Shown one piece after another: positions 1 to 37,171 of a DNA stretch of 64,000 nt. Location: NCBI RefSeq assembly GCF_030013205.1, contig NZ_CP122648.1, one strand, 5' to 3'. The translations under genes and the position numbers were made by a program. Under the pieces are notes generated by a model. It was given only the letters and a program-made list of their open reading frames with translations, did not search any database and was not told the DNA's origin. The stretch's first letter is position 1. Each line of letters opens with the position of its first letter. This DNA is from Escherichia coli (GTDB taxonomy: Bacteria; Pseudomonadota; Gammaproteobacteria; Enterobacterales; Enterobacteriaceae).

Positions 1-908
1 GTACTCTGCACAAGGGCGATATCGTTCTGTGTGGCTTCGAATACGGTCGTGTTCGTGCGATGCGTAACGAACTGGGTCAGGAAGTGCTGGAAGCGGGTCC
101 GTCCATTCCGGTGGAAATCCTCGGCCTGTCCGGCGTTCCGGCTGCGGGTGATGAAGTTACCGTTGTACGTGACGAGAAGAAAGCGCGTGAAGTTGCACTC
201 TATCGTCAGGGTAAATTCCGCGAAGTTAAACTGGCGCGTCAGCAGAAATCTAAACTCGAGAACATGTTCGCCAACATGACCGAAGGCGAAGTTCACGAAG
301 TGAATATCGTCCTTAAGGCAGACGTACAGGGTTCTGTGGAAGCTATCTCCGACTCCTTGCTGAAACTGTCTACTGACGAAGTTAAAGTGAAGATCATCGG
401 TTCTGGCGTAGGTGGTATCACCGAAACCGACGCTACCCTGGCTGCGGCGTCCAACGCCATCCTGGTTGGCTTCAACGTACGTGCTGATGCCTCTGCACGT
501 AAAGTGATTGAAGCGGAAAGCTTGGATCTGCGTTACTACTCCGTCATCTATAACCTGATCGACGAAGTGAAAGCGGCAATGAGCGGTATGCTGTCTCCGG
601 AACTGAAACAACAGATTATCGGTCTGGCGGAAGTTCGTGACGTATTCAAATCACCGAAATTTGGTGCCATCGCAGGTTGTATGGTTACCGAAGGTGTGGT
701 TAAACGTCACAACCCGATCCGCGTTCTGCGCGACAACGTGGTTATCTACGAAGGCGAGCTGGAGTCCCTGCGCCGCTTCAAAGATGACGTTAACGAAGTC
801 CGTAACGGTATGGAATGTGGTATCGGCGTTAAGAACTACAACGACGTCCGCACTGGCGATGTGATCGAAGTATTCGAAATCATCGAAATCCAACGTACCA
901 TCGCTTAA
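1..908 (+). CDS. infB: translation initiation factor IF-2, C-terminal part (5' end outside window)
   Basis: ORF track 60..908; frame stays open to window start; translation matches IF-2 C-terminal domains; followed by rbfA-truB-rpsO-pnp. Confidence 0.95.
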
Positions 909-919
909 GGTTGTCTGGG

Positions 920-1000
920 TTGTAGGCCGGATAAGGCTTTTACGCCGCATCCGGCAGCCGTTGCCTGATGCGACGCTAGCGCGTCTTATCAGGCCTACAC
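920..1000. repeat. REP/BIME palindromic units (gtaggccggataaggc...gccgcatccggca and gcctgatgcg...cttatcaggcctac)
   Basis: Two inverted REP-consensus copies directly visible downstream of infB stop. Confidence 0.8.
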
Positions 1001-2464: not shown

Positions 2465-2830
<366 letters not shown>

Positions 2831-2846: not shown

Positions 2847-2875
2847 AAAAGGGGGCCTGAGTGGCCCCTTTTTTC
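2847..2875 (+). terminator. rpsO rho-independent terminator (gggggcc tgagt ggcccc + T-tract)
   Basis: Hairpin plus U-run directly seen 20 nt after rpsO stop. Confidence 0.85.
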
Positions 2876-3020
2876 AAGCTGACGGCAGCAATTCACTGGA
2901 AACTAATGTATTGTTGCTATGAATGATCTTCCGTTGCAGAGGTTCGCGCGGCTAATGAGAGGCTTTACCCACATTGGGCTGGGTTAGGGTTGTCATTAGT
3001 CGCGAGGATGCGCAGAAGAT
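2847..3020 (-). ncRNA. sraG: candidate antisense sRNA in rpsO-pnp intergenic/pnp leader (SraG-like position)
   Basis: Placement from remembered K-12 annotation only; not independently supported by sequence features I can compute. Confidence 0.3.
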
Positions 3021-8427: not shown

Positions 8428-9672
8428 ATGGCAACACTAACCACCACCCAAACGTCACCGTCGCTGCTTGGCGGCGTGGTGATCATCGGCGGTACCATTA
8501 TTGGCGCAGGGATGTTTTCTCTGCCTGTGGTCATGTCCGGGGCGTGGTTCTTCTGGTCAATGGCGGCGCTGATCTTTACCTGGTTCTGTATGCTGCATTC
8601 CGGCTTGATGATTCTGGAAGCTAACCTGAATTATCGAATCGGTTCTAGCTTTGACACCATCACCAAAGATTTGCTGGGCAAAGGCTGGAACGTAGTCAAC
8701 GGCATTTCCATTGCCTTTGTGCTCTATATCCTGACTTACGCCTATATTTCTGCCAGCGGTTCGATTCTGCATCACACCTTCGCGGAGATGTCGCTGAACG
8801 TCCCTGCACGGGCAGCTGGATTTGGTTTTGCACTACTGGTGGCGTTTGTGGTGTGGTTGAGCACCAAAGCGGTCAGCCGGATGACGGCGATTGTGCTGGG
8901 GGCGAAAGTCATTACGTTTTTCCTCACCTTCGGTAGCCTGCTGGGACATGTGCAGCCTGCGACATTGTTCAACGTCGCCGAAAGCAATGCGTCTTATGCA
9001 CCGTATCTGCTGATGACGCTGCCATTCTGTCTGGCATCGTTTGGTTATCACGGTAACGTGCCGAGCCTGATGAAGTATTACGGCAAAGATCCGAAAACCA
9101 TCGTGAAATGCCTGGTGTACGGTACGCTGATGGCGCTGGCGCTGTATACCATCTGGTTGCTGGCGACGATGGGCAACATCCCTCGTCCGGAGTTTATCGG
9201 CATCGCCGAGAAGGGCGGTAATATTGATGTGCTGGTACAGGCATTAAGCGGCGTGCTGAACAGCCGTAGCCTGGACCTTCTGCTGGTCGTGTTCTCAAAC
9301 TTTGCGGTAGCAAGTTCGTTCCTCGGCGTAACGCTGGGTTTGTTTGACTATCTGGCAGATCTGTTTGGTTTTGACGACTCTGCCCTGGGCCGCTTTAAAA
9401 CGGCGTTGCTGACCTTTGCCCCGCCTGTTGTGGGTGGTCTGCTATTTCCGAACGGATTCCTGTATTCCATTGGTTATGCTGGCTTAGCAGCTACTATCTG
9501 GGCAGCAATTGTACCGGCGCTGTTGGCCCGCGCATCGCGTAAACGCTTTGGCAGCCCGAAATTCCGCGTCTGGGGCGGCAAGCCGATGATTGCGCTGATT
9601 CTGGTATTTGGCGTCGGCAACGCACTGGTGCATATTTTATCGAGCTTTAATTTGCTGCCGGTGTATCAGTAA
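8428..9672 (+). CDS. mtr: tryptophan-specific permease Mtr (414 aa)
   Basis: ORF track; HAAAP-family transporter translation. Confidence 0.95.
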
Positions 9673-9680
9673 TCAGCGGT

Positions 9681-11021
<1,341 letters not shown>

Positions 11022-11069: not shown

Positions 11070-12077
11070 CTACCCCAATAATTCTTCCTTCACATCCATC
11101 ACCAGCTCAAACGAATGCAGGCGCGCCTGGTGATCGAAAATCTGCCCGTTAACCATAATCTCATCGGCGTCGGTTTCGCGCAGGATCGACTGCAAGCCGT
11201 GACGCACTTTCGCTTTATCACCCACCAGCGACATACTCAGCGCCTGCTGCACGCCATACTGCTCGGACGGTGACCAGAACTGATCCATATTTTGAATCGG
11301 CGGCGGCAGTTGCCCGGTTTCGCCACGGCGCAGCTTCACAAAGGCTTGCTGCATTGAGGTAAAGAGAAATTCAGCGTCGCGGTTGCTGTCGGCGGCGATA
11401 ATATTGATGCACACCATCGCATACGGTTTTTCCAGCCGTGCCGACGGTTTGAAGTTGCTGCGATAAAGATGCAGCGCCTGGAACAACATATCCGGCGCGA
11501 AGTGTGAGGCAAACGCAAACGGCAGACCAAGCTGCGCCGCCAATTGCGCGCTGTAAAGGCTGGAGCCTAACAACCACACGGGGATTTTCTCGCCATAGCC
11601 TGGTACCGGGCGCACATGCGGATTGGGATCGCGGGCGTCAAACCAGTCCACCAGCTCCGCGACATCGCGGGGAAAATTATCAATATCGCCGCTCATATGA
11701 CGACGTAGAGCCATCATGGTTCGCTGGTCACTACCCGGAGCACGACCCAGCCCCAAATCGATTCGCCCCGGATAGAGCGTATTAAGCGTGCCGAACTGTT
11801 CGGCGATCACCAATGGTGAGTGATTAGGCAACATCACGCCGCCAGACCCCAGATGCAGCGTAGTGGTATTCGCCGCCAGATAGCCAATCAAAACTGATGT
11901 TGCAGCACTGGCAATGCCGGTCATATTGTGGTGTTCCGCCAGCCAGTAGCGATGATAGCCGCGCTTTTCAGCCAGACGGGCGAGGTCGAGAGAGTGGGAG
12001 AACGCTTCTCGCGCTGAAGAACCTTCGGGAATGGGGGCCAGATCGAGTAGCGAAAACGCAATGGTTTTATCAGTCAT
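11070..12077 (-). CDS. yhbW: luciferase-like monooxygenase family protein (335 aa)
   Basis: ORF track translation. Confidence 0.9.
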
Positions 12078-23110: not shown

Positions 23111-23878
23111 TTAACGACGACACATTTCATCAATCACGCATGTGAAATGGTTATGCAGCCATAAAAACGAAGCTGGGATAGCGGTGGAGACTTTAGCCGT
23201 GAGAAAACGTTCTGTCGCATCCTGCTTTCCTTCGCCAGTCACCAGTAACAAAACTTCGCGGGCATTGAGAATATCCTTCAGGCCTAAGGTGATCCCACGA
23301 GTCACGGGACGGCCCGCGGTTTTTAACATCTCATGTTGCTGTGTTCTGGCATCAAGTTGACTGATATGGCAGGCCGGTTGCAGGTTTTCTCCCGGTTCGT
23401 TCAGCCCAAGATGACCGTTTTTCCCCAATCCGAGAACGCATAAATCCAGACCGCCTTTGCGCGCAATCAGGTTCGTTACCCGTTCGCACTCTGTCTCATT
23501 TATCTCTTCGGAGCGAAAGCTGATGAGTTGGTCTTCACGTAGCCCCAGCGGCTGCACGATATGCTGTTGCAGGAAAGTTTCGCAGGTGCCAGGCATCGTT
23601 AATGGCAGATCCACCCATTCGTCGAGCTTCACGAAGGTGAGCTGGCTGACATCAACCTGCTGCTGGTGGATTTTTTCTACCAGATAATGATACGTCAGTA
23701 ATGGCGTGGCTCCGGTCGCCAGGCAAATCACGGCATCCGGTTTGCTACGGATCACGGCCAATAAATATTCGCTGGCACGTTCACTTAACGCCGTATAGTT
23801 TTCAACTTGTTGAAGGGTTTGCACAGGATGAAATTCCTTAAGTAAAGAGGCACCGCCAGACGCGGTGCCTCGTTCCAT
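23111..23878 (-). CDS. agaI: putative galactosamine-6-phosphate deaminase/isomerase (NagB-like)
   Basis: ORF track; NagB/6-phosphogluconolactonase-like fold; last gene of aga cluster. Confidence 0.85.
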   Translation of the reverse strand: MERGTASGGASLLKEFHPVQTLQQVENYTALSERASEYLLAVIRSKPDAVICLATGATPLLTYHYLVEKIHQQQVDVSQLTFVKLDEWVDLPLTMPGTCETFLQQHIVQPLGLREDQLISFRSEEINETECERVTNLIARKGGLDLCVLGLGKNGHLGLNEPGENLQPACHISQLDARTQQHEMLKTAGRPVTRGITLGLKDILNAREVLLLVTGEGKQDATERFLTAKVSTAIPASFLWLHNHFTCVIDEMCRR

Positions 23879-24670
23879 TTACAAAATGCCGAATGCAGAA
23901 CAAACAATAGAAAGAACAAACGTCACGCCGATTAACAGCACCGGATGCGCTTTTTTCACCCGCAGGAAGTAATACATCAGCAGGGTGTAGGCCATCGGTA
24001 AAATATTCGGGAAGACTTTATCGAAGAAATCCTGCTGCAGCGCGACGCTGTGGGTACTGTCGATGGCAAACGATGTCACCACGTTAATATGCACATACGA
24101 AGCGATCAGCCCGCCGATTACCGTGATCCCGAGGATGGTTGCCGAACGAGCAATCATCTGCGAGTTCTCTCGCACTTTATCGATCGCCTTCACGCCGACT
24201 GAATAACCGACGTGGGTCCAGCCGACGCGCAGGAAGAAGATAAGCAGGTAAACGGCGAAAAATAGAATCGGCCCCAGCAAGTTTCCCTGGCTGGCAAATG
24301 ATGAGCAAATTCCCGCCATAATCGGCAATAAGGTAAACCAGAAAATCGCATCGCCAATCCCGGCGATTGGGCCAAACAGTGCCACTTTGAGGCCTTTAAT
24401 GGTGTCGCGGTTTTCTCCTTTTTCTTCCATCGAAATTAATAACCCTATCAGGAATCCGACCAGATTCGGGTGGGTATTAATAAATTCGAGGTTATCTTTC
24501 ATCGCCGCGCTTAGGCCCGGTTTGTCGTCCTTATAAATCTTTTTCAGGCTCGGCAACATCGCCCAGGTAAAACCGCCCGCCTGCATCCTTTCGTAGTTAA
24601 AGCTCGCTTGCAGCAGTGACGAACGAAAGCCCAGACGGGTGATATCTTTTTTACTGATTTCAGATCCCAT
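23879..24670 (-). CDS. agaD: PTS galactosamine-specific EIID component (263 aa)
   Basis: ORF track 23879..24817; likely start MGSEISKKDITR overlapping agaC stop. Confidence 0.88.
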   Translation of the reverse strand: MGSEISKKDITRLGFRSSLLQASFNYERMQAGGFTWAMLPSLKKIYKDDKPGLSAAMKDNLEFINTHPNLVGFLIGLLISMEEKGENRDTIKGLKVALFGPIAGIGDAIFWFTLLPIMAGICSSFASQGNLLGPILFFAVYLLIFFLRVGWTHVGYSVGVKAIDKVRENSQMIARSATILGITVIGGLIASYVHINVVTSFAIDSTHSVALQQDFFDKVFPNILPMAYTLLMYYFLRVKKAHPVLLIGVTFVLSIVCSAFGIL

Positions 24671-25463
24671 TGCTGTAGTCCTCTTCTTCATTTTTACTGG
24701 CAACGGGCTGCGGTTGCGCTTGCTGCCGGGATTTCGCATTGAAAAACTCATACACCGCAAAGCCTGCGCCCAGTACGGCAACCGGCAACAGGTTGCTGAC
24801 CTGGATGTAGCAAACAAACAGGAAACCGGCGATCAGGTAAGGGATATATTGCGCTTTGAACATTACGCGCAGCAGCAAGCCAAAACCAACGGCAGGCAGA
24901 ATACCGCCAGCCACTTCAAAGCCGTGGGTCAGCCAGGCGGGCATCGCTTTCACCAGCGCCTGCATCGCCCCTTGTGCCAGGTAAGTACAGAGGAAAGCAA
25001 TCACCGCATACGCTGAAGCAACGATGAGCATCGTTGTCCAGTTAAGTCGGGAAAACGCTGCCGTATCCGCTTCTTTCGCGCATTTATCGGCTTTGGTCAT
25101 AAATAATGAGAAAGCAGAATAGAAGAACAGAATGACGTACTGCATTAACAAACTAAACGGCAGGCCAAGACCAATTGCCGTTTTGGCATCAACGCCCGTA
25201 GACCATGCAATGACGGTGGTCATCAGACCCGCCATAATCGGGTTGGGCGGCTGAACACCACCTGCAGGGGTTAATCCGGCGAAAGCCAACTCTGTCAGAC
25301 CACCGGTAATTAAGCCAGTCTGAATATCACCGAGAATAGCGCCAGTTAGGGTACAAACGATTATCGGGCGGAATAAAAATAAGGCTTCCAGCCAAAAATC
25401 AATCCCCAGAAAGAAAACTAACGCCGCCAGGGATAATCCCTGGAGTAGGGTTATTTCATGCAT
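24660..25463 (-). CDS. agaC: PTS galactosamine-specific EIIC component (267 aa)
   Basis: ORF track. Confidence 0.9.
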   Translation of the reverse strand: MHEITLLQGLSLAALVFFLGIDFWLEALFLFRPIIVCTLTGAILGDIQTGLITGGLTELAFAGLTPAGGVQPPNPIMAGLMTTVIAWSTGVDAKTAIGLGLPFSLLMQYVILFFYSAFSLFMTKADKCAKEADTAAFSRLNWTTMLIVASAYAVIAFLCTYLAQGAMQALVKAMPAWLTHGFEVAGGILPAVGFGLLLRVMFKAQYIPYLIAGFLFVCYIQVSNLLPVAVLGAGFAVYEFFNAKSRQQAQPQPVASKNEEEDYSNGI

Positions 25464-25501
25464 TTTTATTACCTCAAACCAATATTAAGGCGATTTTAGA
25501 T

Positions 25502-25978
25502 TTAGTCAGGGATTTGTTCTTTTTGATCGCCAGGGACGTCCTGAATGAAAACATTCACGCCACGTTGTTTAATAAAACGTAAGTCCGTGAGATCCTGGTC
25601 ATCGACATAAACTTTACTGCTGATTTGCTTTTTCCCTTCCGAGAAATGCATATTGCCGACGTTGACATCTTTCAGGTCAATGCCACCTTCTACCAATTTA
25701 CGTACCGTTTGTGGCGTACGGCAAATCAGGAAGATCTTTTGATGCGGTGCAGCTTTGCCGATGACATTAATGGTTTTTTCGATAGTAAAGAAACGAATGC
25801 CAAAGCCGTAGGTTTCCGCGGTAATACCCATTAATTTCTGTTGAATATCATCGTTAGCGACAACATCATCCACGACTACCAGCAGATTTGCACCGATGGT
25901 AGATGTCCAGGTCACGCCAACCTGACCGTGAACCAGACGGTTATCAATACGGGTTAAGAGAATATTTGGACTGCTCAT
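25502..25978 (-). CDS. agaB: PTS galactosamine-specific EIIB component (158 aa)
   Basis: ORF track. Confidence 0.9.
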   Translation of the reverse strand: MSSPNILLTRIDNRLVHGQVGVTWTSTIGANLLVVVDDVVANDDIQQKLMGITAETYGFGIRFFTIEKTINVIGKAAPHQKIFLICRTPQTVRKLVEGGIDLKDVNVGNMHFSEGKKQISSKVYVDDQDLTDLRFIKQRGVNVFIQDVPGDQKEQIPD

Positions 25979-26144
25979 TGTGTAATCCTCACCATAAAGT
26001 TGAATAATATAATTTTTTTAAATATATTATTGTTGCGATATTGTACTGATGTATTTATTAAGGTTTAGTTATCTCCTTTACCATTAAGGCACTCCCCGAT
26101 ATTAATCGGGAAGTACATTGGGATAAATCATAAAAAACTAATGA

Positions 26145-27017
<873 letters not shown>

Positions 27018-28172
27018 TTATGCCTGCCACGGATGAATGATTACGCCTTGCACCACGCGGTTAACGGTGCCGCTGGCTGATGGGGTATCCGGCGTATTGC
27101 CCATGTGCAGCGACTGCATAAGTGCAAACGTCTGGGCGTACATCAGGAAGCAAAATGCCTGCTCAACGTCGATAAAGTGACGGGACGGCGGCAGGATAAT
27201 ATGTGGACCGGCAGCAACGATGTCTGTGCTTTCCGCGGCGATGGCGATTACGCGCATTGCCTGGTTATCGCGGCGAAGTTCAGCCAGTAGATCAAGATCA
27301 TACTGACGGGTGTAAGGGTGGCTGGAGACAAATACCACCACCAGCGTTTCGTTATCGACCAGCGATTTCGGGCCATGACGGAATCCGGTCGGGGAATCAT
27401 AAAAGGCCGCCAGTTTACCCGCCGTCAGTTCCAGTACTTTCAGCGCCGACTCGCGTGCTGCGCCCTGTAAGCCACCGCTGCCGAGATAAACGATCCGTTT
27501 CCACGGTGCGTAACCAAACACACCTTCGCTGAAATCGCCCAGTGAGGTCAGGATCGCCTGGCAACGATCCGCCACGTCGCGGAAGCTCTGGCTGTTGATC
27601 GTCTCAGGTGCGAAAACCGCGAGGCAGCTGGCCATCATGGTGGTAATGCTGCTGGTCATCGCAAAGCCGCGATCGTGCGTTTCTGCGGGCATCAGTAGGG
27701 CAAACGCGTTGTCGCTGTTGATCGCGTTTTGGTAAAGAGCGCCCGCTTCGTTGCAGGTGATCGGCAGGTGATAGCACTCGGGTACAAATTGATTTGCCAG
27801 TTCCACGGCGGCGACGCTTTCCGGGCTGTTGCCGGATCGACCGAAGGAGATCAACAGCAGTGGATGAGTTGGATTCAGGTAGTCCATCGGATTGGTGACC
27901 AGATCGGTGGTCGGTACGGCGCTGAAGTTTTTACCGGTATGGCTGGCGAGCCACGGCGCGATAATGTCACCGATAAATGCCGAGGTTCCGGCTCCGGTCA
28001 GGATTACCCGCAGATTCTCTTTGCGCAGTAACGGTTCAAGGAAGTTATTGAGCGCGGAACGTAGTGCGTCGATGTTGGTGAGTGAACGGATCCATGCGCG
28101 AGGCTGATGGCGGATCTCTTCTTCAGTCCATGTACCGGTTGCGGCAGCAGCAGGGGGGTAATTTTCTGGCAT
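27018..28172 (-). CDS. agaS: SIS-domain putative galactosamine-6-phosphate deaminase/isomerase (384 aa)
   Basis: ORF track. Confidence 0.9.
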   Translation of the reverse strand: MPENYPPAAAATGTWTEEEIRHQPRAWIRSLTNIDALRSALNNFLEPLLRKENLRVILTGAGTSAFIGDIIAPWLASHTGKNFSAVPTTDLVTNPMDYLNPTHPLLLISFGRSGNSPESVAAVELANQFVPECYHLPITCNEAGALYQNAINSDNAFALLMPAETHDRGFAMTSSITTMMASCLAVFAPETINSQSFRDVADRCQAILTSLGDFSEGVFGYAPWKRIVYLGSGGLQGAARESALKVLELTAGKLAAFYDSPTGFRHGPKSLVDNETLVVVFVSSHPYTRQYDLDLLAELRRDNQAMRVIAIAAESTDIVAAGPHIILPPSRHFIDVEQAFCFLMYAQTFALMQSLHMGNTPDTPSASGTVNRVVQGVIIHPWQA

Positions 28173-28189
28173 AACTCAATCCTTAGTCT

Positions 28190-28360
28190 GATGAACTTGA
28201 CGTCGGGCGTTGTCGCTTTCGCTTACCTTTCGTTTCATTTCACTTGGTGATGTCTTTCGTTGATTAAAATCTATAGAAAAGAAACTGAAAGTTCAATGGA
28301 GAAAAAAGAAATAAAACGAAATTTGTGATCGTTGAAAGAAAAGACAAGGGAAGATTAAAG
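28190..28360. promoter_or_regulatory. agaS promoter region with repeated tttcgttt/aaacgaaa-type motifs (AgaR operator-like)
   Basis: Repeated motif seen in sequence; AgaR assignment is established knowledge/inference. Confidence 0.5.
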
Positions 28361-28522
28361 GATTGCGTGATAACGTCGCTATGTTCACCGATTGCCGGAT
28401 GCGGCGTACCGTAGGTCGGATCAGACGCGTTAGCGTCGCATCCGACACCGCTGCACAGATCAAAAAGAAAGAAAAAGAAAGGCCTTACGGGGGAAGTGAA
28501 GGCCCAATAATGGAGCAAACCA

Positions 28523-29656
28523 TCAAAACGAAGCTAATTGACCCTGAATCCAGATTTGTTGCACATGTAGCCCGCTATCCAGCGCAACGACGCTGGCGCG
28601 TTTGCCCGGTTTAAGCGATCCCAGAACACCATCAACACCCAGCATTCGCGCCGGATGCAGCGACGCCATATGGATGGCTTCCGCAGGCGTTACGCCCGTT
28701 AACTCGACCATGTTGCGCACTGCTGCATCGACAGATAGCGTACTGCCCGCCAGCCCACCGGACGCGGTACGGACAACGCCACCGTGCATCTGCACTTCTT
28801 CGCCACATAACGTATAGCGACCATCCGGCATCCCAGCTGCCTGCATCGCGTCGGTGATCAGTACGATTCTCTCTTTCGCACAGCAACAACACAGCGACAT
28901 CGCCGCCGGATGCACATGATGACCATCGGCTATCAGTTCCAGCCAGGCGCGCTTGTCCGTTAATCCCGCGCCAACCATTCCCGGTTCGCGGTGATGTAAA
29001 CCTGTCATCCCGTTATAGCAATGCACCAGGCCGTCGGCACCAGCATCAAATGCGGCGCGGGTTTGTTGCCAGGTCGCCGCGCTATGCCCCAGCATCACCC
29101 TTACGTTTTGCTGTTTAAGATGGCGGATGGCCTGCAATGCCCCTTCTTTTTCCGGTGCCAGCGCTACCACGCGTAAGGTGTGCTGAGAAACGGCAATCAA
29201 TTGATCCAGCTCGGCAATTTCCAGCTCGCGAAACAGCTCCGGTGGATGCGCGCCTTTATTCTGCGGCGTGAAGTACGGTCCTTCGAGATAACTCCCCAGC
29301 ACTTGCGCACCAGGTCCGCCGCGTTGGCAACGTTGAGCAATACGTTTCAGCGCCGCATGAATGGTATTAAGCGGCGCGGTTACGGTGGTCGGTAACCAAC
29401 TGCCGACACCTTCGCATGCCTTGTGCATTGCCAGCTTGTCGAGTACATCCGGCGCGTCATCCATTACATCAACGCCCGCACCACCGTGTACATGGGTGTC
29501 GATGTAAGCGGGGCAGAGCAGTTCCGCATCGCGTTCAGTCACGCCCACTGGAATCGGTTCGATTGCTGCGATGACACCGTCAGCAATACGCAACTGATGG
29601 TCATCGAGCCATCCCTCTTCAGTTAGCAGCCTTCTGGCGCGCAGAACGGGTGTCAT
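28523..29656 (-). CDS. agaA: N-acetylgalactosamine-6-phosphate deacetylase, full length (about 377 aa)
   Basis: ORF track 28523..29677; NagA-like. Confidence 0.88.
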   Translation of the reverse strand: MTPVLRARRLLTEEGWLDDHQLRIADGVIAAIEPIPVGVTERDAELLCPAYIDTHVHGGAGVDVMDDAPDVLDKLAMHKACEGVGSWLPTTVTAPLNTIHAALKRIAQRCQRGGPGAQVLGSYLEGPYFTPQNKGAHPPELFRELEIAELDQLIAVSQHTLRVVALAPEKEGALQAIRHLKQQNVRVMLGHSAATWQQTRAAFDAGADGLVHCYNGMTGLHHREPGMVGAGLTDKRAWLELIADGHHVHPAAMSLCCCCAKERIVLITDAMQAAGMPDGRYTLCGEEVQMHGGVVRTASGGLAGSTLSVDAAVRNMVELTGVTPAEAIHMASLHPARMLGVDGVLGSLKPGKRASVVALDSGLHVQQIWIQGQLASF

Positions 29657-30087
29657 ATTCCTTCCTCGACCGGACATTCTTCATGGCAGCGGCCTAACTC
29701 GTCCACCAGACTGGTCAGCCCACGGTGTCCACACTCCAGCGCCTGCACACGGAATTCTTCACCGATTAACCCTTCGCGCTCCAGCACCATCTCCAGTAGC
29801 AGTTGTAAATTGGTGCCTGTAATCACTTCACAGCCCGGTTTTTGCATCGCCAGCGTTGAAGCTACGCGAAACGGCGTGCCGCCCAGCAAATCCGTCAGAA
29901 AAACAATGCCGTCTTCACAATCCAGTTGGGCGATGGCCTCTTCAAGCTGCGATGTAAGCAGCGCGGTGCTTGAGGTTTCCGGAAAATCGATGGCGATAAA
30001 CTGCGATTGCTCGCCGAGGATTTGCTTCATTGCTTTTTCCATGCCACTGGCAAACCCGCCATGCCCTGTCAAAATAATACTTAACAT
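29653..30087 (-). CDS. agaF: PTS N-acetylgalactosamine-specific EIIA component (144 aa)
   Basis: ORF track. Confidence 0.88.
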   Translation of the reverse strand: MLSIILTGHGGFASGMEKAMKQILGEQSQFIAIDFPETSSTALLTSQLEEAIAQLDCEDGIVFLTDLLGGTPFRVASTLAMQKPGCEVITGTNLQLLLEMVLEREGLIGEEFRVQALECGHRGLTSLVDELGRCHEECPVEEGI

Positions 30088-30104
30088 CTAATACCTCATT
30101 GTAT

Positions 30105-30983
30105 TTAAAGGAAATGGCAGAATTTACCGACGATGCCGAGAACCACGGTCACTGCAATCAGGCGCAGCGGACTCCAGCCGCGGCGTACCAGCCAGAACAT
30201 GGTCAGGGTGTAGACCAGCGGTAAGAAGGCAGGCATCAGTTTGTCGATAACATCAGCCTGTAACTTAACCACTGCGTCGCCCGCTGTGATTTCCAGCGTG
30301 GTGCTTAAACGAACATAGGTTGCCACCAGCGCGCCGATTACCGTCATCCCAACGATAGACGCAGCATGGCCGACTTTTTTGGTATTCGCTTTAATGAGTG
30401 GAATCGCCGCCACGCCCATGCGGTAAGCATAATGCGCCAGACCAAAACGCAGCCCCAGGTGTACCACGTTGAACAGCACAATAAAGACGACTGCGCCAAG
30501 AATAGAGCCTTGTAGCGCGAGGCTTGCGCCTATCCCACCACAAATCGGCAGTAGCGTCAGCCAGAACATTGCATCGCCAATCCCGCCAAGTGGCGCACCG
30601 ACGGCAATTTTGGTGCTCTGAATACTGTTAACGTCCTGCTTAGAACGCTCCATCGCAAGGATAATGCCGATAACAAACGTCACCAGAAACGGATGGGTAT
30701 TGAAGAAACCCATATGCCCCTTCATGGCGCGCGCCAGGTCGCGTTTATTAGTGTGGATCTTTTTCAGAGCAGGCAGCAGACCGTACAACCAGCTAGAAGC
30801 CTGCATACGTTCGTAGTTAAAAGACGCTTGTAACAGCATGGAACGCCAGGCGACGCGGTTGATATCTTTTTTCGTCAGCTCTGCGCCAATGCTCTGATCT
30901 TCATACACGTTTTCATTGACGCCTGTCAGCAGTGTTTCTTCGTTTTCACTGACGTTCGGCAGGGTGGTTTGATTAGATGCCAT
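30105..30983 (-). CDS. agaE: PTS N-acetylgalactosamine-specific EIID component (about 292 aa)
   Basis: ORF track 30105..30989; paralog of agaD. Confidence 0.88.
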   Translation of the reverse strand: MASNQTTLPNVSENEETLLTGVNENVYEDQSIGAELTKKDINRVAWRSMLLQASFNYERMQASSWLYGLLPALKKIHTNKRDLARAMKGHMGFFNTHPFLVTFVIGIILAMERSKQDVNSIQSTKIAVGAPLGGIGDAMFWLTLLPICGGIGASLALQGSILGAVVFIVLFNVVHLGLRFGLAHYAYRMGVAAIPLIKANTKKVGHAASIVGMTVIGALVATYVRLSTTLEITAGDAVVKLQADVIDKLMPAFLPLVYTLTMFWLVRRGWSPLRLIAVTVVLGIVGKFCHFL

Positions 30984-31752
30984 CTTCAAATTCCTCTTTC
31001 TGTGCCGCAGGTTGAGTCGGTTCAGGAGATTTACGCAGCAGGTCGATCAGCGCCATCGCCAGCGCGGCGGCAGCAATAGCCAGCACCGGTAACTTGAGCC
31101 AGGCTGCGGCAACAAAGCCCAGGATGAAGTAGGGGATGTAGACGTTTTTCATCATGATTTTCAGCAGCACGGCAAAACCGATTGCTGGCATGATGCCGCC
31201 CGCGACGCCGAGGCCGTCGATTAATCGTTGCGGCAGGACATCAATGATGGTTTTGGCATGTTCTGCGCCGAAGTAGATAGGCAGGAAAGCGCAGAGAAAA
31301 TAGAAAGTGCCGAGTGCCAGCAGTGCCAGATAGTTCACGCGTTCAATGCCGCGTGTATCGGCGTTCTCCGCCATCCGGTCGCAGCGAGACATCACGCCAG
31401 ACATCACCGAGAACAGGAAGGTAATCCCCATCTGTACTGCGACAGCGAAAGGTACGGCGACACCGACCGCGACATCGGGTTTCACGCCAGTAGTAATGGC
31501 AAACGCCGTGCCGACGATAGTACCGATAATCACGTTAGGCGGTTGTGCGCCTGCCAGCGGGGCCAGCCCCATCCACACCAGTTCCAGCGTACCGCCGGTT
31601 AAAATACCGGTATGCAGATCGCCAAGTACCAGTCCGACCAACGGGCCGAGGACCACCGGGCGGTGCATATGGGTTAGGCCGTTAAACATATCCAGGCCAG
31701 CGATAAAGGCGATAATGCCCAACGCGAATGCCTGCAACAGACTGATTTCCAT
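30973..31752 (-). CDS. agaW: PTS N-acetylgalactosamine-specific EIIC component, full length (259 aa)
   Basis: ORF track. Confidence 0.88.
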   Translation of the reverse strand: MEISLLQAFALGIIAFIAGLDMFNGLTHMHRPVVLGPLVGLVLGDLHTGILTGGTLELVWMGLAPLAGAQPPNVIIGTIVGTAFAITTGVKPDVAVGVAVPFAVAVQMGITFLFSVMSGVMSRCDRMAENADTRGIERVNYLALLALGTFYFLCAFLPIYFGAEHAKTIIDVLPQRLIDGLGVAGGIMPAIGFAVLLKIMMKNVYIPYFILGFVAAAWLKLPVLAIAAAALAMALIDLLRKSPEPTQPAAQKEEFEDGI

Positions 31753-31762
31753 GATGAATCCC

Positions 31763-32236
31763 TCAAAGTAATTTAAAGAGGTCCACTGCAGGCTCTGTCG
31801 GGACGCCCTGAACGAAGCATTCCACCCCAGCGGCTTTCAGGTCGTTAAATGCTGCAATATCGCCCGCATCTACAGAAACCGTTTTGGCGATTTGTTGCTT
31901 GCCATTGGCGTAGTGCATATTGCCAACGTTAATGCGATTCACCGGAACGCCACCTTTCACCAGCGTCAGGAAATCGGCAGGTGTTTTACAAACCAGCAGG
32001 ATTTTCTGTCGATCGGCGGCGCGATGAATGTTGTCGATGACTTTTTGCAGCGTCCAGAAACGTACGGCTATCCCTTCTGCCAGTACCATTTCCATCAGGT
32101 TTTGTTGTACCGGATCTTCGGCAACCTCATCGTTGGCTACCAGCACCAGATTTGCTCCCGCAAATCCGACCCACTGAACGCCGACCTGACCGTGAATCAA
32201 GCGTTCATCAATCCGGCTTAAAACAATATTTGGCAT
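31763..32236 (-). CDS. agaV: PTS N-acetylgalactosamine-specific EIIB component (157 aa)
   Basis: ORF track 31763..32272; likely start MPNIVLSRIDERL. Confidence 0.88.
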   Translation of the reverse strand: MPNIVLSRIDERLIHGQVGVQWVGFAGANLVLVANDEVAEDPVQQNLMEMVLAEGIAVRFWTLQKVIDNIHRAADRQKILLVCKTPADFLTLVKGGVPVNRINVGNMHYANGKQQIAKTVSVDAGDIAAFNDLKAAGVECFVQGVPTEPAVDLFKLL

Positions 32237-32258
32237 AGCGTGTTCCTCTTTGTTTTGC

Positions 32259-33539
32259 TTATTGGCCTTCACAGGCTGTGTGGTACTGCGCCAGGATGTC
32301 CTGAATATGGTTGATAATGAGTTCCCGTGGCGTCGGTTGCAGCTCGCCGGAGCGAACTTTCACGTATTGCAGCGGCAGATACTGGCTGATGAGCGGCAGC
32401 GGAATCGGTGAATCCGCCAGATTACGAACCAGATGGGCGAAAGCGTCATCAATCTGGCTGTCCGGCCAGTAATAGCGCACGCGATCCGAGTAGCTATAAC
32501 CACGCGCCATACGACGCGCGTTGCCGTCACCGTGGTAGTGGCTTTGCCAGTATTCCGGGCGGTCGAGCATCACGTTTTCCAGCACCTGACGCAGACCGGA
32601 ACAGGCTTTCGCTGGTACCAGTTCTTCTTCAATCGCCGCCAGAGAAAAAAGGGCTTCACGCAGGGCGAAGGTCAGCGCCGGGCCAACTTTCAGAATGGCA
32701 AAGTGGTCAATCACTAGCTGGCGCAACGATTGCGGCGTTTGGTAATCGGTAGAGTGCGCTTCGAAAATCAGCGTTTCGTAGTTTTCGACCATCTGGCTTA
32801 AGGCGGTCGCTTTAGCTGGCTGATAATCAATAACGTTGGTGTGATCGAATTCGACGCCGGGTTGTACCACCAGAGCAATGATGCGTGGCCAGATGGCACT
32901 CAGACCTTGCTTTTCAAAGGCGTGACGATGGGCTTCCAGCGTGGCGCGGGCGGCATCTGGCGTGGTGACCGCCAGCTCGCTTAAGGTTTCATGCGCGCCG
33001 CCAGGTACCGGTACTTCGGTACCAATGACATACACCAGATCGACTTCGCCAAAGTGTTCACGGCAGCTTTCTTCCGCCACTTTCGCCAGACGGGCGGCGC
33101 GTTCAGCCACGATGTCATCAGTTAAGGGAACCGGATCGTCCTGGCAGGACATGCTGCAATCAAGGTGGATTTTTTTGAATCCTGCCGCCACGTAGCTTTT
33201 AATCAAATCATCGGCATTGGCCATTGCCTGAGCGGCTGGCTGGTTTTGCCAGCGGTTTGGCCCCAGATGGTCACCACCCAGAATCAACGCATCCTGTGGG
33301 AAATTCAACGAGTCGGCGAGCTGACAAACAAAGCCGCGAAAATCGGCGGGCGTCATTCCGGTATAACCGCCGAACTGGTCTACCTGATTGGAGGTTGCTT
33401 CAATCAGTAACGACGTTTGGTTTGCACTGGCGTAGCGGATTGCAGCTTCCAGCACCAGCGGATGTGCGGAACAAACGGCATAAATTCCATTTGTTTTGCC
33501 CGCTTTGTGCTGTCTCACCATTTCTGTCAGATGTTTCAC
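32259..33539 (-). CDS. kbaZ: tagatose-bisphosphate aldolase non-catalytic subunit (426 aa)
   Basis: ORF track. Confidence 0.9.
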
Positions 33540-33787: not shown

Positions 33788-34597
33788 ATGAGTAATACCG
33801 ACGCTTCAGGTGAGAAGCGAATGACAGGCACCAGCGAGCGACGAGAACAGATCATTCAGCGTCTGCGACAGCAAGGGAGTGTGCAGGTTAACGATCTGTC
33901 GGCATTGTATGGCGTATCTACTGTGACGATCCGCAACGATCTGGCGTTTCTGGAAAAGCAGGGGATCGCTGTGCGTGCCTATGGCGGCGCGTTGATCTGC
34001 GATAGCACGACGCCGTCAGTCGAGCCATCAGTGGAAGATAAAAGCGCGCTGAACACCGCAATGAAACGCAGCGTTGCGAAAGCTGCCGTTGAGTTGATTC
34101 AGCCAGGTCATCGGGTGATTCTCGATTCCGGGACCACCACTTTTGAGATTGCTCGTCTGATGCGCAAGCACACTGACGTAATTGCGATGACCAACGGTAT
34201 GAACGTGGCTAATGCGTTGCTGGAAGCGGAAGGCGTTGAGCTGCTGATGACCGGCGGGCATTTGCGCCGTCAGTCGCAATCTTTTTACGGCGATCAGGCT
34301 GAGCAATCGCTGCAAAATTACCACTTCGATATGCTGTTTCTTGGTGTAGATGCGATCGATCTGGAGCGCGGCGTCAGCACGCATAATGAAGATGAAGCCC
34401 GTTTAAACCGCCGGATGTGCGAAGTTGCGGAACGGATCATCGTGGTCACCGATTCCAGTAAATTCAATCGTTCCAGTTTACATAAGATCATTGATACTCA
34501 ACGTATCGACATGATCATTGTTGATGAAGGCATTCCTGCGGATAGCCTGGAAGGGCTGCGAAAGGCTGGGGTTGAAGTGATTCTGGTCGGGGAGTGA
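33788..34597 (+). CDS. agaR: DeoR-family repressor of the aga operons (269 aa)
   Basis: ORF track; N-terminal HTH, DeoR C-terminal domain. Confidence 0.92.
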
Positions 34598-34651
34598 GAA
34601 AGGGGGCCCGCTGGTCAACACGAATGCGTTCGGCGGGCATTGTGAACACCA

Positions 34652-35116
34652 TCAATCGGTTTCTTCTGTCTCTCGGGTGAGGGTTTCCCAGTCGGCAGGA
34701 GGATGTCCTCTTTTTAACATTTTGCTGAATACGGTATAAGCATCTGTTTTTTTACCGTAGGTGCGCAGAGTGTTTTCATCGTTCATCCATCCCAGAATGA
34801 TGACTTTCTCTTTTTCACTATAACGAAAGAAGAGACGATAACGACCAGCACCAAATTTTACCCGTGACCAGTCTTTATTTTTCCCAGAGCCTAACGACTT
34901 GCCATGACGGAATGCCGGTGATGATGGATTGACCGTGATATGCTCCTCAATCACTTTATGGACTACCGCCAATAACTTTGTGGCGGCTTTTCTCTGATAA
35001 TTTTCAGGATCTTTTCCCTTTAATGTCTCGACTTCGGCAACTAAAGCGTCGTAGGTTTCCTGAAAACAGGGATGAGCATATAGCGCCCAACTATTAACCC
35101 TTTGTGGAAAATCCAT
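34652..35116 (-). CDS. yhaV: toxin YhaV, ribosome-dependent mRNA interferase (154 aa)
   Basis: ORF track; 4-nt overlap with upstream prlF. Confidence 0.9.
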   Translation of the reverse strand: MDFPQRVNSWALYAHPCFQETYDALVAEVETLKGKDPENYQRKAATKLLAVVHKVIEEHITVNPSSPAFRHGKSLGSGKNKDWSRVKFGAGRYRLFFRYSEKEKVIILGWMNDENTLRTYGKKTDAYTVFSKMLKRGHPPADWETLTRETEETD

Positions 35117-35451
35117 TATTCGTCGTCGCCAATCTCATCATCAATGTTGACGTCCATGCCAGCGACAAGTTTCTTTCCTTGTTGAATGTTGAATGGACGA
35201 GTTTTTTGCGGGTTGTTCTGGATATCTGCATCCAGAAAACGCAAAAATGCATTCATAGTATGATCCTCCTGTTCATCTCCCAGTCGGCACATAAATACTT
35301 GCCCACCAGGCAGAATTTCGTAATGAATGCTGTCCTGGCCTGGCTTCAGTTTTAAGGCCTCACGCACTGGCGCGGGGATAGTTGTTTGTCCGCGTATCGT
35401 GACCTTTGATTCAGTGGTCAGTACAGCGTGAGAGCGAGCATTAGCGGGCAT
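35116..35451 (-). CDS. prlF: antitoxin PrlF (SohA), AbrB-fold (111 aa)
   Basis: ORF track; acidic C-terminal tail; paired with yhaV. Confidence 0.9.
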   Translation of the reverse strand: MPANARSHAVLTTESKVTIRGQTTIPAPVREALKLKPGQDSIHYEILPGGQVFMCRLGDEQEDHTMNAFLRFLDADIQNNPQKTRPFNIQQGKKLVAGMDVNIDDEIGDDE

Positions 35452-35549
35452 GATTCACTGTCCTTTTACAGCCTGTTTTCTGCTCAAATTATAAGCTTGA
35501 ACTAAGGTAATGCAAATGCATTATTAATGGACGTGGGGACTTTAAACAA

Positions 35550-35580
35550 TAAAAACATGGCACTAAGGCCATGTTTTGCG
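35550..35580 (-). terminator. garD rho-independent terminator (acatggc cttag tgccatgt + T-run on minus strand)
   Basis: Hairpin plus T-tract seen downstream of garD stop. Confidence 0.6.
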
Positions 35581-35599
35581 AGGGACGTTCCAAAAGAAA

Positions 35600-37171
35600 T
35601 CAGGTCACCGGTGCCGGGTTAAACACCGCCAGCTGGTTATGCAGTCCCCATTGATCTGAGAAGGTTTTCTTCTTCCCGCTGGCGACGTCGAGAATAAAGT
35701 GGAACAACTTCCAGCCCACCTCTTCAATAGTTTCTTCGCCGGTAGCGATGGTGCCCGCATTAATATCCATTAAATCAAACCAGCGGTTCGCCAGCTCGGT
35801 GCGGGTCGCCATTTTAATGACGGGTACCGCCATCAGGCCGTACGGCGTACCACGACCGGTCGTAAACACTTGCACGGTGATACCCGAAGCCACCTGTTGC
35901 GTGCCACAGACAAAATCGCTGGCTGGCGTCGCGGCGTAAATTAATCCGCGTTTAGTCGGGCGTTGACCAGGCGACAGCACTTCAACAATTGCGCTTTTAC
36001 CCGATTTAGCAATGGAGCCGAGCGCTTTCTCCACCACATTTGCCAGACCGCCTTTCTTGTTGCCCGGCGAAGGGTTGGCGCTGCGGTCGGTTTTTCCCAT
36101 ATTGAGATAGTTATCGTACCACTCCATCTCCTCCAGCAGCCGTTTGCCGACCTCTTCGTTCACTGCGCGTGGTGTCAGCAGATGGATCGCGTCACGCACT
36201 TCCGTGACTTCTGAAAACATCACCGTTGCGCCGCAGCGCACCAGTAGATCAGACGCATACCCAACCGCCGGGTTTGCCGTTACGCCAGAAAACGCATCGC
36301 TACCGCCGCACTGCATGCCGACAACCAGTTCTGAAGCCGGACAGGTTTCTCGCTGCCGTTGATTCAGTTTGTGCAAATGGCGTTCGGCGACCTGCAAAAT
36401 ATCCTCGACCATGGACTGAAAACCGACATGCTTTTCATCCTGCAAACTGACAATGCTGGCGCTTTCTACTGGAATAGCTTGCACATCATCCGTTCCAGTC
36501 AGCAGGCGTTCAGGCTGCAACTTTTCACAACCCAGACCAATCACCATTACTTCGCCGCCAAAGTTAGGGTTCAGCGAAATATTGTGAATGGTACGAATAG
36601 GCACAACTGCCGCCGGTGCGTTAATCGCCACGCCACAACCGTACAAATGATTCAGCCCCACCACGCCATCGACGTTCGGGTATTTCGGTAGCAGATCGCG
36701 TTCAATGATTTTTACTACATAGTCCACCACGCCTGCCACACAGTGGACGCTGGTGGTGATGCCGAGCAGGTTTTTAGTGCCCACGCTGCCATCGGCATTG
36801 CGATAGCCCTCAAAGGTGTATCCTTCCAGCGGCGGTAAGGGCTCCGGGACTTTGGTTGCCAGTGGCAGCGTGTGTAACGGCGGCGCTTCCGGTAGTACAA
36901 CCATTGATTCGTCGATCCAGCTTCCGCGTGGGATTGCGCGCACGGCGTAACCAATCACTTCGCCATAACGAATAATTTCACCATTAGCCGGAATGTCCAG
37001 CAATGCGACTTTATGCCCCTGGGGAATATGTTCAATTAATTCCAGCCCATCCGGAAAACGCGTTCCTGCTTTCAGGCCATTATCATTAACAATAATTGCC
37101 ACATTATCTGTGTCGTGAACTTTTATATAAAACGCAGTTGGCGTTTCTTGTCTGATTTCGATGTTGGCCAT
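35600..37171 (-). CDS. garD: galactarate dehydratase (523 aa)
   Basis: ORF track. Confidence 0.93.

Follow-up and report, generated by a model that had tools for sequence, protein, structure and literature searches.

The prlF-yhaV toxin-antitoxin operon of an Escherichia coli chromosome and the distribution of its upstream palindrome across the PrlF family

Taken as a whole, the locus described here is best explained, with a confidence close to certainty, as the chromosomal type II toxin-antitoxin operon prlF-yhaV of Escherichia coli. It lies in a 64,000-nucleotide stretch of the E. coli contig NZ_CP122648.1, referred to below as the window. Upstream of prlF, the window carries a two-armed palindrome, the PrlF box, which on comparative sequence grounds is very probably the repressor-binding site of the operon. 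The operon is already known and ordinary, and it is present in almost every E. coli chromosome. The PrlF-YhaV system of E. coli K-12 was characterized by Schmidt et al. (2007, J Mol Biol 372:894; cited via PMC7781912). The locus is of little value as a discovery, given this work of 2007 and the automatic annotation of the pair by the NCBI pipeline, and a correct annotation is modestly useful. Anything mildly new is limited to the wide occurrence of the PrlF box across the family and to its variants.

Results

The two genes are encoded on the minus strand. prlF (35116..35451; 111 amino acids) is assigned as the gene of the antitoxin and autorepressor, and yhaV (34652..35116; 154 amino acids) as that of a RelE-superfamily ribonuclease toxin, present here as a G9S/H154D allele. 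Both open reading frames were found at these positions with the lengths given in the initial annotation, which had also placed them correctly between agaR (33788..34597, plus strand), the neighbor of yhaV, and garD (35600..37171, minus strand), the neighbor of prlF. Both genes share one strand, with the antitoxin gene directly 5' of the toxin gene and overlapping it, which is the arrangement of type II toxin-antitoxin modules. This overlap had been described as 4 nt (ATGA), which needs correction. The junction on the minus strand reads GAC GAA TAA TGG, with the prlF stop codon TAA at 35118..35116 and the yhaV start codon ATG at 35116..35114, leaving an overlap of 1 nt (TAATG) with 35116 as the single common base. 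A 1-nt overlap of prlF and yhaV is likewise found in the RefSeq annotation of K-12. Reading of the sequence further revealed a Shine-Dalgarno-like AAGGA (35461..35465, minus strand) 9 nt 5' of the prlF ATG.

PrlF is identical to K-12 b3129 in all 111 residues, and YhaV is identical to K-12 b3130 in 152 of 154 residues (99%), the changes being G9S and H154D. Between the stop codons of garD and agaR (1002 aligned bases), the window differs from K-12 MG1655 at 8 positions without any indel, and the 148-bp promoter region is one base off K-12 (T/C at window position 35539), outside the palindrome and the promoter hexamers. Alignment with K-12 revealed 0 frameshifts and 0 premature stops, in agreement with the earlier statement that both open reading frames are intact. 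DNA of 100% identity carries the names prlF and yhaV in RefSeq. In a megablast search, the segment 34400..35800 was found in 5361 of 5426 complete E. coli genomes, 5117 of which had at least 80% of it covered, nearly always as a single copy per chromosome. Annotated E. coli genomes show the gene order agaR, yhaV, prlF, garD, as in K-12. The reading as a type II prlF-yhaV module is borne out by this orthology to b3129/b3130, by synteny, and by scores of both proteins above the family cut-offs.

PrlF scored 142.2 bits against PF15937 (cut-off, 32; E=6e-42) and, over its full length, 170 bits against the NCBIfam equivalog NF007429 (cut-off, 125; E=1e-50). The score against TIGR01439 was 27.1 bits, slightly below the cut-off of 28.3, and the match to Pfam MazE_antitoxin was weak (E=1e-3) and below cut-off. 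A small but diverse alignment of 17 sequences (26-96% identity) was used for an AF2 model of PrlF, which reached a pLDDT of 88-90 over residues 11-50 and was poor in the tail. SpoVT, AbrB-N, Sso7c4-like, MazE, and C68 structures made up the top 13 Foldseek matches in the PDB (probability, 0.63-1.0), and MazE was matched both free and DNA-bound. Among these, the domain-length matches had an rmsd of 1.3-2.8 A over 43-54 columns; the Foldseek E-values were weak (0.045-0.5) because the domain is short. With SpoVT, AbrB-N, and MazE as the best matches of the N-domain, the model upholds the AbrB fold proposed earlier and supports an AbrB/SpoVT/MazE swapped-hairpin DNA-binding domain in PrlF, as far as a monomer model reaches, the swapped dimer itself being beyond it. 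Conservation among the aligned PrlF sequences is highest in the DNA-binding loop RGQTTIP..VR, including T18, Q22, T24, P26, and R30, which fits a conserved DNA target. The antitoxin had also been described as having an acidic tail, and its C-terminus, DVNIDDEIGDDE, is indeed acidic. A sequence search of the PDB with PrlF returned no matching entry. In reviews, PrlF is classified as AbrB/MazE-like and YhaV as RelE-like (PMC7781912, PMC11980606). The protease acting on PrlF is listed as unknown in table 2 of one review (PMC3021852), and PrlF overproduction has been linked to Lon activation (PMC5408214).

YhaV scored 181.9 bits against PF11663 (cut-off, 35; E=8e-54), covering 137 of 138 profile positions, and a PDB sequence search with YhaV likewise returned no matching entry. 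From an alignment of 15 sequences (41-97% identity), again small but diverse, AF2 produced a model with a pLDDT of 92.1 and a pTM of 0.88. The first 42 Foldseek PDB matches of this model were all toxins of the RelE/ParE superfamily, among them PfiT, HigB2, RelE, M. tuberculosis RelE1 and RelE2, YoeB, and ParE, with target-normalized TM scores of up to 0.76, supporting a RelE/ParE (BECR) fold at the level of the model. Of the conserved basic and aromatic residues, K87, R94, R98, R118, and Y127 are invariant and R85 is nearly invariant in the 15 family members, and YhaV of the window has all six. Replacement of two conserved arginines of YhaV was reported to abolish activity (PMC5408214).

The G9S substitution raises the question of whether the module is intact but its toxin attenuated, the locus then serving mainly as the gene of the PrlF regulator. 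Codon 9 of yhaV (35090..35092) would encode part of the N-terminal beta-hairpin turn, and position 9, just before the invariant W10, is Gly in 13 of the 15 family members. Moreover, toxin decay with retention of the antitoxin exists in the family, as exemplified by Enterobacter sp. BIGb0383 (see below). On the other hand, YhaV of the window is full length and keeps every column that is invariant in the 15-member alignment, and its AF2 model is confident also at the N-terminus (pLDDT of 89 for residues 1-10). The G9S/H154D allele was detected on 389 public contigs, which argues for a stable lineage variant; the K-12 allele was detected on at least 1000. We therefore consider attenuation of the toxin quite improbable and retain the reading as a complete toxin-antitoxin pair, in which the activity of the G9S variant could differ from that of K-12 YhaV, judging from residue conservation. 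Among the megablast matches, G9S was common to many swine enterotoxigenic E. coli (ETEC) genomes.

In the intergenic region between garD and prlF, the best sigma-70-like promoter predicted on the minus strand by a consensus scan consists of a -35 hexamer TTTGCA (35511..35516), a 17-nt spacer, and a -10 hexamer TATAAT (35488..35493), with 10 of 12 consensus matches. A hairpin with the features of an intrinsic terminator, a 10-bp stem followed by a T run (35552..35577, minus strand), separates garD transcription from this promoter and is kept in the Escherichia and Pseudocitrobacter loci. The near-palindrome reported at about 35505..35525 upstream of prlF is real and spans exactly 35508..35523. 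It reads TAATGCAAATGCATTA on the plus strand and consists of two 7-nt arms, TAATGCA and TGCATTA, around a 2-nt center (TAATGCA-AA-TGCATTA). Even with up to 2 mismatches allowed, the 64-kb window contains no second match. A full-text literature search with the palindrome sequence returned unrelated papers only. In a lone sequence, a 7+7 palindrome is only weakly non-random, and its significance comes from its conservation across species. A second candidate box, AATGCATTTTTGC at about 35250 within prlF, was rejected as a coding constraint, since it encodes the conserved N-A-F-L motif with invariant F69 and L70.

For phylogenetic footprinting, two diverged orthologs were combined with plasmid and metagenome-assembled genome (MAG) homologs. 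A scan of genome contigs with the single protein yielded 13 loci, of which six were useful, and no chromosomal ortholog in Salmonella or Klebsiella was among these 13. The six upstream regions aligned were those of four Escherichia loci (the window and three fetched ones), of a syntenic Pseudocitrobacter ortholog with 75% PrlF identity, and of a non-syntenic Enterobacter sp. BIGb0383 ortholog with 67% PrlF identity. Across these six, the only invariant stretches of at least 6 bases were ATGCA-W-TTGCATTA and TATAAT, i.e., the core of the palindrome and the predicted -10 hexamer. The core of the Enterobacter box is a perfect 12-mer palindrome, ATGCAATTGCAT.

A tblastn search of plasmids with PrlF returned 332 records, from which twelve were taken across taxa, and two MAG loci from the genome-contig scan were added. 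A box was scored where at least 12 of the 14 positions of TAATGCANNTGCATTA were matched no more than 250 nt 5' of prlF. By this definition, a box was present in 14 of 17 non-redundant loci, compared with 0 matches when 44,720 control positions in these loci were scanned and an average of 0.0165 loci in shuffled upstream regions. Box-bearing homologs, with PrlF identities of 30-48%, were found in Rhizobium, Deinococcota, Rhodobacterales, Bradyrhizobium/Afipia, Pantoea, and Fukatsuia and on IncF plasmids. In the Rhizobium MAG (30% protein identity), the 16-mer is letter-identical, and in the Deinococcota MAG (35% protein identity), all 14 specified positions are matched. The distance from the box to the start codon ranges from 41 to 234 nt among the homologs. 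In several alphaproteobacterial loci, the box is 32-42 nt away from the start codon, and it is here more likely to cover the -10 hexamer than the -35 hexamer. The Pantoea, Fukatsuia, and IncF plasmid copies have two or three tandem boxes, 17-18 nt from start to start (L016 631..682, L017 651..684, L018 800..832, and L019 814..847). On the IncF plasmids, some 200 nt separate the boxes from the prlF start as annotated, which implies either a long leader that is unexplained or an error in the annotation of the start codon.

These data bear on whether the palindrome might be a mere promoter element or a chance AT-rich palindrome, with the true operator elsewhere. The predicted -35 hexamer indeed falls within its right half-site, shuffled sequence is expected to give 0.27 matches per window at up to 2 mismatches, and the bare 16-mer pattern arises by chance in large collections. 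The exact 16-mer was present on 80 viral contigs, and hmmsearch (E<=1e-3) detected neither a PrlF nor a YhaV homolog at these 80 loci. The PrlF N-domain alone gave two marginal matches there (E of about 0.03), neither of them suitably positioned with respect to the motif, and we take the viral occurrences as chance matches with no bearing on the operator. What a chance or promoter-only origin leaves unexplained is that the whole two-armed palindrome, beyond the -35-like hexamer, is kept upstream of homologs down to 30% identity and in other phyla, with no match in the control positions, and that its distance from the gene varies and its copies are often in tandem, unlike any promoter element. 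On these comparative grounds, such an origin is very unlikely, its probability being close to negligible. The earlier proposal of an autoregulatory operator is supported by the footprint, by the family-wide 16-mer, and by the review account in PMC7781912, and for practical purposes, comparative evidence gives good support for assigning the operator to 35508..35523.

The box is not uniform across the family. The Acetobacter locus lacks AATGCA-NN-TGCATT and carries TAAGG-N6-CCTTA at the same place, between TTGACA and TATAAA hexamers (L024 841..862), and a palindrome that resembles it but is imperfect, TAAGGAATTAATCTTA, is present in Thalassospira (L027, about 860..882). From the sequences, these palindromes may represent operators co-evolving with their antitoxins. 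A PrlF-family gene on the Klebsiella pneumoniae plasmid pKP19-3088-375k (L020 802..1173) lacks the RGQTT loop, the upstream box, and a YhaV partner, and is followed by a convergent relE/parE-phd pair. In Enterobacter sp. BIGb0383, yhaV (L007 2836..3305) is a pseudogene disrupted by a frameshift, so that its homologous fragments are spread over two frames, next to an intact prlF (111 amino acids) and an intact PrlF box. As read from its sequence, this prlF is an orphan autoregulated antitoxin gene at a non-syntenic site.

Further features of the window were recorded alongside. The convergent genes yhaV and agaR are 54 nt apart and have a hairpin between them (34606..34638; GCCCGC...GCGGGC), directly 3' of which K-12 differs (GCATCC against GCCCCC). 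This hairpin was rejected as a yhaV/agaR terminator, as it has no U run and is no more stably folded than shuffled sequences (z = -0.49). No Rfam family matched within 34400..35800. Elsewhere in the window, gathering-score matches were obtained for naRNA4 (925..995), the S15 leader (2503..2617), SraG (2847..3018), and RNase P RNA (rnpB; 41866..42242), all expected in E. coli. An intact gene for a 326-amino-acid IS110-family transposase with DEDD_Tnp_IS110 and Transposase_20 domains (9932..10912, plus strand) is located between mtr (8428..9672) and yhbW (11070..12077). In strain CFSAN018748, the corresponding IS110-family element is named IS621 by RefSeq and is interrupted by ISEc31; IS621 is known for a recombinase that is guided by a bridge RNA. 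The aga/gam cluster for N-acetylgalactosamine and galactosamine (23111..33539, minus strand) looks complete, with uninterrupted agaE (30105..30989) and agaD (23879..24817). In K-12, agaW and agaA are annotated as pseudogenes. Strain CFSAN018748, although nearly identical elsewhere, carries an agaE interrupted by a stop codon and a split agaD, so the window belongs to a different strain.

Discussion

A model of the operon can be proposed by combining the sequence features with the literature on the near-identical K-12 proteins. The predicted sigma-70 promoter downstream of the garD terminator would give rise to a bicistronic prlF-yhaV mRNA, on which the TAATG junction of the abutting genes might couple translation of yhaV to that of prlF. 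As a RelE-fold endoribonuclease, YhaV would cleave mRNA on the ribosome and thereby cause growth arrest. YhaV has been described to bind the 50S subunit and to cleave mRNA in a frame- and ribosome-dependent manner (PMC7781912, PMC11980606). An older review refers to YhaV as ribosome-independent in vitro (PMC5408214), so the ribosome-dependent mode rests on the later work. Growth arrest by the K-12 toxin and its neutralization by direct binding of the antitoxin are attributed to Schmidt et al. (2007) in PMC7781912 and PMC3021852.

PrlF would dimerize via its N-terminal swapped-hairpin domain of the AbrB/MazE type and bind and neutralize YhaV in a PrlF2-YhaV4 complex, both of which follow the literature. 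According to PMC7781912, two such hexamers bind cooperatively, as a dimer, to palindromic promoter DNA upstream of prlF. YhaV might serve as a co-repressor (PMC8138530). In the window, the complex would bind TAATGCA-NN-TGCATTA; palindrome binding as such is taken from the literature, and conservation points to this particular 16-mer as the site. One PrlF dimer might recognize each half-site. Given the overlap of the palindrome with the -35 hexamer, the bound complex would be expected to occlude RNA polymerase and repress the operon. By analogy with the general model of type II toxin-antitoxin systems, depletion of the antitoxin would then free YhaV and derepress the operon.

The physiological role of chromosomal toxin-antitoxin modules is still debated. 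[quoted passage not shown] Yet neither PrlF nor YhaV matched the PADLOC-DB models, the genes form a core syntenic chromosomal pair outside any defense island, and our search found no published phage phenotype for prlF-yhaV. A mainly anti-phage function thus appears highly improbable, and we continue to view the locus as an ordinary chromosomal toxin-antitoxin operon.

The breadth of the box, from Enterobacteriaceae to Alphaproteobacteria and a Deinococcota MAG, together with the variants in copy number, position, and operator sequence, is possibly undescribed, but we regard this as rather doubtful. The abstract of Schmidt et al. reportedly states that the complex binds 'a conserved sequence', and much of the breadth may therefore be known already. 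If breadth and variants were new, the PrlF family would offer a clean natural series for studying how AbrB-type antitoxins read DNA and would also show how the number of sites sets repression. By sequence search, the PDB is without a structure of PrlF, YhaV, or their complex with DNA, and a structure of the complex on the 16-mer would still be worth having.

Comparison with known systems places the operon of the window next to PrlF-YhaV of K-12, which occupies the same locus with the same neighbors, garD and agaR, and differs only in YhaV residues 9 and 154 and in a few silent or intergenic substitutions. The plasmid-borne modules, i.e., those on IncF plasmids of E. coli and Citrobacter, Pantoea megaplasmids, a Ca. 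Fukatsuia plasmid, and Rhodobacterales plasmids, share the protein families, the gene order, and the AATGCA-NN-TGCATT box. Their PrlF proteins are 30-48% identical to that of E. coli, and those of Pantoea, Fukatsuia, and the IncF group have two or three boxes, whereas E. coli has one. With E. coli MazE-MazF, the similarity is confined to the antitoxin side. The AbrB/SpoVT swapped-hairpin fold is common to the N-domains of MazE and PrlF, with matches of the PrlF model to the MazE structures 2mrn, 2mru, and 1ub4, and both systems autorepress through a palindromic operator. In contrast, MazF is an unrelated toxin of the CcdB/MazF fold and a ribosome-independent, ACA-specific endonuclease, while YhaV has the RelE fold. 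The reverse applies to RelB-RelE, HigBA, and YoeB-YefM, whose toxins share the RelE/ParE (BECR) fold with YhaV (target-normalized TM scores of 0.6-0.76), whereas their antitoxins are of the ribbon-helix-helix, HTH, or Phd/YefM type and PrlF is of the AbrB type. YhaV is also about 60 residues longer than RelE and has two extra long helices (H16-35 and H44-60).
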